Assembly: GCA_034189385.1 (NCBI GenBank)
Contig: JAXHVD010000027.1
Location: 1-56,361 of the forward strand
From: Thermodesulfobacteriota bacterium
GTDB lineage: Bacteria > Desulfobacterota > Desulfobacteria > Desulfobacterales > C00003060
Reading direction: 5' to 3'
DNA length: 56,361 nt
In this document: piece after piece, positions 4,765 through 48,339 of the stretch
Position numbering within the stretch: the first letter of the stretch is position 1
Layout of the letters: every line of letters begins with the position of its first letter
Translations under genes and position numbers: made by a program
The notes under the pieces: model-generated
The model's database searches: none
What the model was told of the DNA's origin: nothing
The model's input: only the letters and a program-made list of their open reading frames with translations

Positions 4765-4793
4765 TTGACAAGGACCCCGCGGATATGTAGGGT
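4765..4793 (+). promoter_or_regulatory. sigma70-like promoter upstream of 4924
   Basis: TTGACA, 17 nt, TAGGGT. Confidence 0.45.
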
Positions 4794-4923
4794 GCGTGCT
4801 GCTTGTTTGGTAAGTACTTAAAAATCCTAGCAGAAATGGGGGTGATTGTCACAACTTGCTGAAATCATGGGTAGTTATTTCGGTTAGGATCAACCTGTTA
4901 ATCTTATATAATAAGGAGTCAAG

Positions 4924-5787
4924 ATGATGTTTTTGAAAAGGGGAGTACTCTCTCTAGTGGCAATATGCATCGTGGCTATTGCCGGAATCTCCTGGGCGAG
5001 CCCCCCGGTCCCGCCACCGCCAGAGGGTTTCGGGATCGTAACGACCACCGATGTGATAGTCACCGGAGATTTCACGCACGAGTCGTCTCTTAACTGGACC
5101 TACATGCATGATACGGAGGAGAACAACGGTGGGGGAAGCACCCTTGCCCATCCGGGGGTGAACCAGGTCCTTGCCGCGGGCGGCCGTGCAGGCCAAATCC
5201 GCTACGCCAACGAAGTGGATGCCATTGATGGTTATGTGGAGTTCAAGAACAACTTCGAGGCCAGGTCTGACGAAGAACCCAATCTGAAGGTGAGCAAGGA
5301 TTTCGGTTACGTTGCCTCACCGTCAAGTCTCATTGCAACGGCCGAGGATGAAGAGCGCGTTGGTTTAAGCATCGTGGCCAATGGAGATGATGAAGGGCTG
5401 GGTGACATGCCTTCTCTGTGTCCTTGGGCCTCAGGGTCGGAGATACCGGCCACAAATGAGTTCATCGCTGCTGGGAGTTCGACTAGAACAACCAGTGCCA
5501 TGGTATCTCACACCGATACCGACGTGACGTCAACGGGCCCACCGTCGCTCAATCACAGCATTTCTGCCGTAGGTGAAGGTACTGTGACGGCAAGCATGAT
5601 CGTGAGGTTGATGGAAGGAGGGGACGTGCATGTGCCTGGCGAGGCTGCACCCAATCTCGTCAGTAAAAACACCTATGAGGAGAGGACTTCGGCTTCCGGT
5701 GTCATTGAGAAGTTTGAGAAAAGCATGCACTATCATTCTACGATCCCTCAATATCAAATGCCTGAGCCGTGGTACGAGATTCAGTAG
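4924..5787 (+). CDS. Secreted beta-rich protein resembling the Methanomicrobiales sheath-protein-like family
   Basis: TAAGGAG RBS, signal peptide ending SWA, PPVPPPPE, LCPW...IPA, TYEERTSASGVIEKFEKSMHYHS; family similarity from memory only. Confidence 0.55.
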   Translation: MMFLKRGVLSLVAICIVAIAGISWASPPVPPPPEGFGIVTTTDVIVTGDFTHESSLNWTYMHDTEENNGGGSTLAHPGVNQVLAAGGRAGQIRYANEVDAIDGYVEFKNNFEARSDEEPNLKVSKDFGYVASPSSLIATAEDEERVGLSIVANGDDEGLGDMPSLCPWASGSEIPATNEFIAAGSSTRTTSAMVSHTDTDVTSTGPPSLNHSISAVGEGTVTASMIVRLMEGGDVHVPGEAAPNLVSKNTYEERTSASGVIEKFEKSMHYHSTIPQYQMPEPWYEIQ

Positions 5788-5814: not shown

Positions 5815-5845
5815 AAGGGGGCGGGAGTGTCCGCCCCCTTTTTTT
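5815..5845 (+). terminator. intrinsic terminator
   Basis: AAGGGGGCGG / CCGCCCCCTT stem plus T tract. Confidence 0.9.
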
Positions 5846-5960
5846 GTGACAGAGCCAGCCTTTTGTCCTTGCCTTTGATCACCTGTGTTCTGTAAAAATG
5901 CTTTCCATGCCATGAAAGCGTGGACGCAAGATCCCAGAAAATGCTCAAGGGAGGATTGTC

Positions 5961-15566: not shown

Positions 15567-15720
15567 TCCCTCCATCGTTTTTGAGAGAATATCCGTGACG
15601 GAAAACAGAGGCGCAAGGTGTAAGAAGAATCCGCAAGGCCAGATGGCGTATGGCGTGCAGGCCATGGGCCATGTCCAATGTCTAAGAGTCATATCTGAAT
15701 GACTATTGGAAGGGGGAAGC

Positions 15721-16899
15721 ATGGGCGTTTGTAGTAAATTAGGGCTCTATGGGTTTTGGCTTGTGTCATTTTTGGTGATGTTCCTCAGCTTTGAATCAAG
15801 AGGCCTCGGAACCAGTTGGGAAACTGAGAATGTGGACTCCAGTGGCAGCGTGGGTAGTTACACTTCTGTGGCAGTGGACGGATCAGGTAACGTCCATATC
15901 AGTTATTATGATGATACGGACGATAACCTCAAGTATGCGACGAATGCCTCTGGTTCGTGGGAGAGCGAGACAGTTGACGACACTGGCAACGTGGGGAGGT
16001 ATACGTCCATAGCAGTCGATGTGTCAGATAAAGTCTTTATCAGCTACCATAATGACACGAACGGTGACCTCAAGTATGCGACGAATGCCTCTGGTTCGTG
16101 GGAGAGCGAGACAGTTGACGACACTGGCAACGTGGACAGCTATACATCTATAGCGGCTGACGCGTCAGGTAACGCCCATATCAGTTATTATGATAACACG
16201 AACGATGACCTCAAGTATGCGACGAATGCTTCTGGTTCGTGGGAAACAGAGACTGTGGACAGCACTGGTGACGTTGGCCAGTATGCGTCTATAGCGGTGC
16301 GCTCGTCAAGTGAGGTTCATATCAGTTATTATTATGACACCAACGATGACCTGAAGTATGCGACCAATGCTTCTGGTTCGTGGGAAAGCGAGACAATAGA
16401 CAGCAATGGTGTTGTGGGCAAGTATACTTCTATTGCACTTGAGTCACCAGATGAGGTCCATATCAGTTATTATGATACAACGAATAGCAACCTCAAACAC
16501 GCGACCAATGCTTCTGGTTCATGGGAAGCTGAGACAGTAGACAATAGCGGCAGCCTAGGCAGTCATACGTCTGTGGCTATTGACTCAGCTGGTGACATCC
16601 ATATCAGCTATTATGACATTACGAACAGCAACCTCAAGTATGCCACGAATGCTTCTGGTTCATGGGTAAATGAGACAGCAGACAGCAGTAGTGGGTCCGT
16701 GGGCCAGTACAGTTCTGTAGCCATCAACTCGTCAGATAAGGTTCACATCAGCTATTATGATGCCACGAACTTCAATCTCAAGTATGCTATTGGAGCCTCA
16801 GATAGTAACGGGAATGGTAATGGCGGGTCCTCTGACCCAGACGTGTTCTTCAATTGCTTCATCTCCACAGCATGGAATGGATTGGGCACAAAACCGTAG
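15721..16899 (+). CDS. secreted protein with seven ~47-aa repeats (probable beta-propeller) and a C-terminal CFISTA motif
   Basis: Signal peptide; repeats W.xETVD...HISYYD....LKYATNASGS; Gly/Ser/Asn linker then CFISTA. Confidence 0.8.
   Translation: MGVCSKLGLYGFWLVSFLVMFLSFESRGLGTSWETENVDSSGSVGSYTSVAVDGSGNVHISYYDDTDDNLKYATNASGSWESETVDDTGNVGRYTSIAVDVSDKVFISYHNDTNGDLKYATNASGSWESETVDDTGNVDSYTSIAADASGNAHISYYDNTNDDLKYATNASGSWETETVDSTGDVGQYASIAVRSSSEVHISYYYDTNDDLKYATNASGSWESETIDSNGVVGKYTSIALESPDEVHISYYDTTNSNLKHATNASGSWEAETVDNSGSLGSHTSVAIDSAGDIHISYYDITNSNLKYATNASGSWVNETADSSSGSVGQYSSVAINSSDKVHISYYDATNFNLKYAIGASDSNGNGNGGSSDPDVFFNCFISTAWNGLGTKP
15817..16790 (+). repeat. intragenic tandem repeat, 141-nt unit, about 7 copies
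   Basis: CTCAAGTATGCGACGAATGCCTCTGGTTCGTGGGAGAGCGAGACAGTTGACGACACTGGCAACGTGG occurs at 15928 and 16069. Confidence 0.9.
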
Positions 16900-46411: not shown

Positions 46412-47974
46412 CTATTGGAAGACGTCAGGAATGCCATCTTCGGGATCGATGTCTTCATTTAGGTCTAAACCCTGGACGATTGTTCCTTCCAAGAAGGGCT
46501 TCGGAAACAACCCAGACACGTCATCACCAGTAAATGGCGGGAACAGGGTATTTAGGTCTATGCCTGCAAGGAACTTGCTTGCATCCAAAACAACGTCATC
46601 CGACGGATCGGTCGTGTCATTATCATCCACAGTGCATCGGTCATATAGACACTGCTTGGCAACGACGATGCTTTGCCTGGCCTCTTCTATGTCTTGAGGT
46701 GTCTCATCAGCAAGGTTGATAAGATCATTACCCTGAGGGTCTGTTTCTTCCTGAATCCACACGATGGCTGCGTCCAGGTCGTCTAAGGCATCTTCAGCGT
46801 AAGCCTTGGCGAGATCCAAATAGGTGGCAAAACCATCTCTTAGCGTTCCAAAGGCGTCGTTTTCTATTAGAAAAGCCTCGATCGTCTGCTGGTCGTTGTT
46901 CACCGTTTCATCGATATCCGCATCAAGATCGTAGGCGTACTGGATCAAGAGCTGGCCCAGGATCGCTTCGGCTGCAGCCTTGAAGACCAGGACATCTCCG
47001 TAATCGCTCTCAACGGTAGTGTGATCAAAGGGCACGGCCCACGTCTTATTGAAAGCCTCGGACACAGCTTCAAGATTGGCAATAGATCCTTCAATCTCTG
47101 GGCGAACGACATTATAGAGAAAGTCTTGCATCTCTTGCCCTGTTGGAGCGTCATCCGGCAGGGGTTCAGCGCATGAAATGGCCTCAAAGTTTGCCCGTGC
47201 CGCATCAAGAGCAACACAGCCCAATCTGTCCAGGATGTCTCCCAATGTGTTCATATCCGTTGAGTTCCCGTCTGAATAGGTGTCAAATCCCAGAGCAGCA
47301 ATCCTTGTAAGGGCATAAAGAAACCTTGCCGTATCCGCATCATTAGAGGTGGCCGCACCTGCCAAGGACTCTGCGGCCTTAAAGTAGTGGTTTGCCTTAA
47401 GCACCCAGCCATCCATGAGGGCATCAAAGCCATTTGATAGCAACTTCTTTAACGAAAGGTCTGAGGTGTCCGGTTCATTAATGGACATCGGGATACTGGT
47501 ATCCTCTGTTCCCGCATTCACGCCCGAAGTGTCTGTTGGATTGGTTTCCGGGATAGCTATCCCGCTATATTCCTCGGCTACGTCCGTTGTCACAAATCCA
47601 AGGTCAACCCTTGCAGGAGAGGTGAAAGAAAAGACATTCGTGTCAGGCAGGCCATCGCCGGTGCTGTCAAAGTACATGGGATAGATACCACCTTCCACGA
47701 GATAGACCTTGACATCGACACCCACAGGGATTCGGGAAAGGGTGAAAGCATAGTGGCCATTAGCATCAGGCGTTTTCCCTGTTGTGTCATCTTCGGAGAC
47801 AATATCTCCGCTACTATCCACCGCGATAACGGTTGTTCCTTCCACGGTACCGGAGATAGTCCCCGTTTTTTTCCCCCCGTGACTGCCCCCACTACACGCA
47901 AGAAACGAGCATAGGGCTGTGCTCAAAAGCCCAACAAGAAATACTGCCAACAGACCCCTTCTCAGATGTCTCAT
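46412..47974 (-). CDS. large acidic putative lipoprotein
   Basis: GGAGG RBS; MRHLRRG...FLAC-SGGSHGG lipobox. Confidence 0.75.
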   Translation of the reverse strand: MRHLRRGLLAVFLVGLLSTALCSFLACSGGSHGGKKTGTISGTVEGTTVIAVDSSGDIVSEDDTTGKTPDANGHYAFTLSRIPVGVDVKVYLVEGGIYPMYFDSTGDGLPDTNVFSFTSPARVDLGFVTTDVAEEYSGIAIPETNPTDTSGVNAGTEDTSIPMSINEPDTSDLSLKKLLSNGFDALMDGWVLKANHYFKAAESLAGAATSNDADTARFLYALTRIAALGFDTYSDGNSTDMNTLGDILDRLGCVALDAARANFEAISCAEPLPDDAPTGQEMQDFLYNVVRPEIEGSIANLEAVSEAFNKTWAVPFDHTTVESDYGDVLVFKAAAEAILGQLLIQYAYDLDADIDETVNNDQQTIEAFLIENDAFGTLRDGFATYLDLAKAYAEDALDDLDAAIVWIQEETDPQGNDLINLADETPQDIEEARQSIVVAKQCLYDRCTVDDNDTTDPSDDVVLDASKFLAGIDLNTLFPPFTGDDVSGLFPKPFLEGTIVQGLDLNEDIDPEDGIPDVFQ

Positions 47975-48339
47975 CACGCGCCTCCTTTCTGTCAATTCCT
48001 TCCAGTCTATACCTTCATATTCCAACTTACCCAGCTGCCGTAAAAAAGAAAACGTGTATATTACTACAGATTCAGTGTTTTGTCCAGCATCCTAGTATGT
48101 TATTACTCTTTTTTGCGTTTCTTCTTTGAGAACATGCGTCAATGGTTCCATAAGGAGATGCGCTATCATTCAACGACCCCTGACTATCCAATGGCCGAAC
48201 CATGGTATGAGCTTCGGTAGTCTCTAAATCTGTGCAAGGATAAGAAAGGGGATGATAGGGCAAAGTGGCTATACCCAGAGAAAGGACTTGAGAGGGACTA
48301 GAACCTGGCGGTTAGATATTATCTAAGTGCCTTAACGAC

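Follow-up and report, generated by a model that had tools for sequence, protein, structure and literature searches.

A candidate bacterial homologue of the archaeal sheath subunit and its genomic association with a CsgG-like pore

The 287-residue protein P0001 is encoded at positions 4924..5787 (+) of the stretch of contig JAXHVD010000027.1 that we analyzed (56,361 nucleotides; the window). ORF calling and comparison with homologues and profiles support its homology to the archaeal sheath (SH/MspA) subunit. In the text accessible to us, Medvedeva et al. (2024; PMC11576556) report no structural homologue of SH in Bacteria and regard the sheath as likely unique to Archaea; at the sequence level, the family described here is a clear counter-example to an archaea-only distribution. 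A literature search of titles and abstract openings, covering few subscription journals, returned no bacterial SH homologue and no link between SH and CsgG. We think it fairly probable, judging from the genes, that such SH-family subunits are secreted by Sec, passed through a CsgG-like pore and assembled edge to edge as a cross-beta polymer on the cell surface.

Protein features and predicted fold

The N-terminus of P0001 is hydrophobic and forms a helix at residues 3–20 in the AlphaFold2 model. Together with Ala25, which is invariant across 100 homologues, this indicates a predicted Sec signal peptide at residues 1–25 (4924..4998, +), with cleavage after residue 25 read by eye. The mature protein has a pI of 4.4 and contains 10.3% Ser and 8.4% Thr. 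The model (mean pLDDT 83.6) comprises 12 beta-strands forming a core at residues 36–271 (5029..5736, +), in which the order of strands and loops is that of the M. lacunae model considered below. Within this region lie a variable insert after strand 2 (residues 64–86, at the cap position) and a linker (residues 153–176). The linker bears Cys166 (5419..5421, +), the sole cysteine of the mature protein, which is invariant in 100 of 100 homologues and aligns with the linker cysteine of the Methanospirillum family. The core is followed by a tail ending in QMPEPWYEIQ (5737..5784, +), which is conserved in the homologue alignment and has no counterpart in the Methanospirillum family. The initial annotation of this DNA had described a secreted, acidic, Ser/Thr-rich protein of beta-strand-like segments; the predicted signal peptide, the pI and the modelled strands agree with that description. 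The motifs it listed are present in P0001 and correspond to the conserved columns of the bacterial family.

Searches of P0001 against Pfam, NCBIfam, the PDB (by sequence or profile), the ESM Atlas and phage records yielded no informative match, nor did a search of viral contigs with the bacterial family alignment. With the model as query, Foldseek against the PDB returned generic beta-sheet matches with TM below 0.2, BFVD gave nothing at E<=0.001, and a VIA fold search again gave generic beta-sheet matches (best Z 6.2). Fold matches to perforin, gasdermin and porin were rejected as long-strand likeness.

Homology to the archaeal sheath subunit

Early homologue searches gave no named archaeal protein among the matches listed, and the archaeal side was reached through a published viral SH-like protein. 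A motif from the accessible part of the supplement of Medvedeva et al. led to a viral contig protein that reads, by eye, the same as the SH-like vir387_00084; eight of the nine matches of this motif search were to an unrelated protein and were dropped. The homologues of the viral protein constitute a multi-copy Methanospirillum family (342 matches among 718 candidates) that includes RefSeq proteins of M. lacunae, and the 120 of the 342 matches that were listed served as the reference set. By eye, the consensus N-terminus of this family agrees with the M. hungatei rows in the accessible portion of the published alignment. The Methanospirillum family stands in for archaeal SH, MspA included, throughout.

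Comparison of the two families by hhalign yielded an end-to-end alignment of 255 columns (97.8%, E 1e-12), and a second comparison gave 96.6%. With the signal peptides cut the value was 95.7%, and that of a reversed control was 0.3%. Of the 120 listed Methanospirillum-family proteins, 116 scored more than 20 bits with the bacterial HMM (median 35, maximum 51.5), and no score above 4.1 bits was seen among 240 reversed or shuffled controls. Conversely, in a search of the 28,583 ORFs of the source genome with the archaeal HMM, P0001 came first, though with an E-value of 0.029, and three paralogues were among the five best. The AlphaFold2 models of P0001 and an M. lacunae family member, compared by their strand and loop patterns, contain 12 strands each, with the same strand order, spacing and loop places, and in both a low-confidence, cysteine-bearing linker follows strand 6. 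These features fit the description of M. hungatei SH as two six-stranded sheets plus a linker, as given in the accessible text of PMC10593813, which states that only EM maps were deposited; our PDB searches found no SH atomic model. The kinship to the archaeal sheath family that had been suggested for this gene is thus borne out by profile comparisons with controls and by matching strand patterns.

As judged from the accessible parts of the published descriptions (WP_011449234.1; PMC6242892, PMC10593813, PMC11576556), P0001 resembles the Methanospirillum-type subunit in its signal peptide and short Pro-containing N-terminus, in the order of the 12-strand core, the variable insert after strand 2 and the linker cysteine. 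An acidic Ser/Thr-rich make-up, many paralogues and a gene that itself stands outside an operon are also shared. P0001 differs in its bacterial host with an outer membrane, in an identity of only 20–25%, in the absence of the helical cap, in its extra C-terminal tail and in having one mature cysteine, where M. hungatei SH is reported to have two. Unlike Methanospirillum SH, the bacterial family, which is known from genes alone, is linked to a CsgG-like pore.

Distribution and authenticity of the bacterial family

The source genome (G000) is that of a sulfate reducer, with dsrA above cut-off. A paralogue count, proposed in the initial annotation, gave six full copies on six contigs and several fragments, the other full copies being 49–66% identical to P0001. 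A protein search with P0001 returned 134 relatives among 2002 candidates, and the best 120 of the 134 are 40–94% identical. Among the matches listed, all organism-named relatives are Thermodesulfobacteriota, and two locus-tag prefixes account for at least six and at least seven family copies. With the source genome counted each time, 2 of 37 genomes of the genus, 1 of 401 drawn from the order and 2 of 401 drawn from the phylum contain the family; it also occurs in G061, one of eight genomes of its own taxonomic family. The family is rare in the surveyed genomes, many of which are incomplete. Scanning metagenomes gave 63 loci.

Some members (L082, L091, L096; P0120, P0129–P0139) diverge further and have no known host; a number of them stand in tandem arrays, and L082 has a bacterial-looking membrane protein as its neighbour. 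Bacterial groups beyond those named here may also have the family.

Contamination of a bacterial bin by archaeal sequence, or misassembly, a concern with an assembly of 64 contigs and 4% estimated contamination, is largely refuted and extremely improbable. The six copies reside on six contigs (GC 0.51–0.53; genome 0.518), five of which are 56–195 kb long; close homologues carry the label Thermodesulfobacteriota, and next to one copy lies a gene for an outer-membrane pore. The GC3 of the copies (0.55–0.64) matches the genome mean (0.60), which makes contamination or very recent arrival unlikely.

Expression signals of the window copy

The ORF of P0001 was confirmed as real and is intact. It is preceded by the ribosome-binding site TAAGGAG (4912..4918, +), whose GGAG is invariant among the aligned upstream regions, and by a candidate sigma-70 promoter recognized in the same alignment (TTGACA, 17-nt spacer, TAGGGT; 4765..4793, +). 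TTGACA (4765–4770), with a hexamer starting in TA 17 nt further on, is kept in 7 of the 8 aligned upstream regions, and the element is also found upstream of the P0001 relative in the CsgG cluster described below. A consensus promoter scan listed no + strand promoter upstream of P0001. Downstream lies a hairpin resembling an intrinsic terminator, with 11 pairs (8 G-C) and a T run (5815..5847, +). Such sites numbered 3 in the scan, with 2.7 expected, a count that alone is not above chance; judged by eye, similar hairpins are located downstream of five of the six paralogues. Flanks of about 500 bp and 170 bp that hold no long same-strand ORF are consistent with a monocistronic gene. An individual promoter candidate, a strong ribosome-binding site, a terminator and monocistronic organization had all been noted initially, and the conserved elements and flanks agree with this. 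The window neighbours are ordinary (uvrC, cysS, uvrB, an Rrf2 regulator and an EamA transporter) and include no export or assembly gene; P0001 is an orphan copy.

A leader motif, an A-rich run followed by a G run (4820..4844, +), consists of invariant columns in the upstream alignment; an Rfam search of the upstream region including this motif gave no match at E<=1. The motif is common to the orphan P0001 gene and the cluster copy on contig C18, and is possibly the site of a common regulator.

The window copy could be an orphan that is idle or of minor importance, or the family could by now be, in bacteria, a soluble, non-polymerising secreted protein. Family fragments scattered in the genome would fit this reading, as would the statement in the accessible text of PMC11576556 that most paralogues are barely transcribed in sheathed archaea. 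We regard this reading as very unlikely in view of the intact ORF, the conserved promoter, ribosome-binding site and terminator, the orthologues at 87–98% identity on other contigs of the metagenome scan, and the retention of all 12 predicted strands.

Relatives in ANME-1 and probable exchange between domains

The closest archaeal relatives found are copies on ANME-1 (Methanophagales) contigs, the best of which is 38% identical to P0001 over the full length (E 4e-46). These loci (L078–L081, L083–L085, L094; 31–38% identity where compared) were assigned to ANME-1 from neighbour clusters named Methanophagales or ANME-1 archaeon, with one Methanosarcinales member, the subunit cluster itself carrying no name. 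Bacterial and ANME-1 sequences (L078–L085) share, besides their full-length similarity, an N-terminal proline run and a Cys-x-Trp linker motif. In addition, the ANME-1 subunit gene is followed by a gene for 218–231 residues whose product is 34% identical to SH2, the protein encoded after the subunit (SH1) in the bacterial cluster. The common SH1-then-SH2 order and the SH2 identity point to a two-gene cassette present in both domains. All three inspected ANME-1-type loci adjoin an Sso10a-family gene, and two of the three also a CARDB/S-layer-like gene, where the bacterial cluster has csgG and csgF-like genes. A word search of the accessible published SH alignment did not find these ANME-1 sequences.

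The motifs LCPW, PxxNExxAxGS and YxExTxAxG occur in 6–7 of 7 ANME-1 sequences and in 0 of 12 Methanospirillum-family sequences. The parallel to Methanomicrobiales drawn in the initial annotation holds for the Methanospirillum family, but the nearest archaeal relatives found are those of ANME-1, and it is with these that the quoted motifs are shared. Its inclusion of Methanoregula conflicts with the accessible text of Medvedeva et al., which reports SH as absent there (PMC11576556).

The ANME-1 sequences group in one starred branch of the tree, placed among sequences from bacteria and from unknown hosts, and Methanospirillum is placed on a long branch. A constraint uniting both archaeal groups, tested without one long-branch row, could not be rejected (p-AU 0.36), so that the tree gives neither donor nor direction nor order of events. 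Exchange of the family between the domains, which had been raised as a possibility, now appears likely with the cassette shared across them.

With ANME-1 copies as the closest archaeal relatives, the protein might also serve in docking or mimicry, binding to, or co-polymerising with, the sheath of a neighbouring archaeon such as ANME-1 instead of building a layer of its own. The accessible text of Medvedeva et al. (PMC11576556) proposes that SH-like proteins encoded by viruses join the SH of their hosts, and it notes that bacteria have been pictured inside ANME-1 sheaths. A full subunit gene set with its own pore, and six copies whose expression signals are strong, are nevertheless more in keeping with a self-built structure, and the presence of the family in only 2 of the 37 genomes of the genus likewise argues against docking, which we hold to be decidedly unlikely.

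A gene cluster with a CsgG-like pore

Outside the window, contig C18 of the source genome carries, in this order, genes for a CsgG-like protein, SH3, SH1, SH2, an acidic secreted protein, a csgF-like protein and an Hsp20-like protein. The same order is seen in G013 and two metagenome contigs, and six of the seven genes are present in G061 in a different arrangement; the cluster is contained in loci L016, L002, L052 and L060 and, reordered, in L004. The pore protein scores above the cut-off of PF03783 and matches E. coli CsgG over residues 51–260 (E 2e-10). Its scores of 41.7 bits against CsgG and 18.6 bits against HfaB, the latter weak, do not reach the curated cut-offs.

Four genomes contain both the subunit and this CsgG subfamily. 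Within the genus both are found in the same 2 of 37 genomes; these two are part of the query alignment, and the informative part is thus that the other 35 score at most 26.5 bits. The 400 other genomes drawn from the order contain neither the subunit nor the CsgG subfamily at E<=1e-30. Genome G632, which lies outside the order and was found by the subunit alone, has the same CsgG subfamily (420 bits); its csgG adjoins SH3, acidic and csgF-like genes, and the subunit gene is on a different short contig. G000, G013, L052 and L060 are apparently close kin, which reduces the association to about three independent lineages. In 2 of the 63 metagenome loci csgG lies beside the subunit gene, most loci being short or holding orphan copies. 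No curlin repeats were detected in the four carrier genomes, which are incomplete, and the E. coli control was positive.

The remaining cluster genes are less readily named. The csgF-like protein gave no CsgF match in Pfam, NCBIfam or the PDB. The N-terminus predicted for its mature form can be aligned gap-free to CsgF positions 5, 6, 8, 10 and 13, but not to Phe7 and Phe12, which are needed for CsgG binding according to the accessible text of PMC6957492. Pfam detected no CsgE among the cluster genes. SH3 resembles the archaeal upstream gene weakly (hhalign 9%, E 0.004) and shows no relation to SH1; SH2 resembles SH1 weakly (17%, E 0.001) and shows no relation to the Methanospirillum family. 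The SH-type label of SH2 and SH3 is accordingly tentative.

The polymer might form in the periplasm or follow another export route, the CsgG-like pore serving the small cluster proteins or some other substrate. Five of the six full copies, P0001 included, are unlinked to csgG, archaea assemble SH without CsgG, and the CsgF identity of the csgF-like protein is putative. This route is nonetheless unlikely in our view, as the subunit accompanies the CsgG subfamily in different lineages and gene orders and no curlin substrate was detected in the four carriers. To our knowledge, no assembly factors are known for archaeal sheaths.

Relative to curli and type VIII secretion, as described in the accessible text of PMC6957492, the cluster has a CsgG-family lipoprotein that keeps the barrel hairpins, Sec-exported beta-rich candidate substrates, and a small secreted neighbour partly in register with the CsgF N-terminus. 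The Caulobacter holdfast anchor, in which a CsgG-family pore (HfaB) is used with the non-curlin proteins HfaA and HfaD, offers a precedent, although its substrates are unrelated. The curli substrate is built of beta-solenoid curlin repeats, whereas the candidate substrate here is a two-sheet subunit of the SH type. CsgA is also smaller than the 262-residue substrate proposed here.

A multi-pass membrane protein is encoded in or next to the cluster (L060:6006-8078, L004:1978-4050, L082:1-1113), with TPR repeats in two complete copies. It is presumably similar to protein glycosyltransferases and could modify the subunits. The cluster Hsp20-family protein (L016:13084-13656) has an apparent signal peptide, unusual for that family, and is a candidate periplasmic holdase.

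Proposed assembly and its implications

In the pore-dependent assembly that we favour, the subunit would be exported to the periplasm by Sec, cross the CsgG-like outer-membrane pore as an unfolded chain and fold into two six-stranded sheets after the pore. Subunits would then extend the sheets of their neighbours, as those of M. hungatei SH do, and a cross-beta ribbon would grow by sheet augmentation. Cys166 could cross-link ribbons, the csgF-like protein could tether the polymer to the pore, and SH2 and SH3 could act as minor subunits or nucleators. The window copy, whose promoter pattern is common to the cluster copy, would use the pore in trans. The ribbon might either close into rings, yielding a sheath, or stay a fibre or mesh. 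It is possible, though doubtful, that some uncultured Desulfobacterota possess a true archaeal-type amyloid ring sheath outside the outer membrane, with a cassette exchanged with ANME-1, a re-purposed curli pore and dispersed paralogues acting as interchangeable surface variants.

An envelope polymer of archaeal type paired with a bacterial pore for amyloid secretion would mean that type VIII secretion is not limited to curlin. The family further suggests that a cassette of cell-envelope genes was exchanged between ANME-1 and sulfate reducers, two groups known for their syntrophy. The small bacterial cluster of pore and subunits, expressible in E. coli, would offer a practical handle on SH polymerisation and ring formation.

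Additional observations

The source genome also encodes a protein of more than 600 residues (L109:2900-5311 (-), on G000:C14) in which an SH3-like domain (138 bits) comes first and is followed by Ig-like domains. This arrangement is reminiscent of the 'sheath adhesins' reported in Methanothrix and ANME-1. In the window, secreted repeat-rich proteins are encoded at 15706-16899, the product of which has no Pfam match, and at 46412-48025. An ORF of 28 codons (48134..48220, +) comprises only the family's final strand and its tail (tblastn 47% over 34 aa) and is probably a family remnant.

The sequence IPQY at the start of the P0001 tail resembles the CsgA recognition peptide, as given in the accessible text of PMC6957492; its Gln is not conserved in the family. 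The family tail is also present at the end of an otherwise unrelated, secreted-looking protein of 169 residues and of a half-length secreted subunit, and a further half-length relative has no such tail (loci G000:C6:4122-4631 (-), G000:C2:104604-105212 (-) and G000:C2:7237-7710 (-)). This C-terminal tail might serve as a portable tag for export or assembly.
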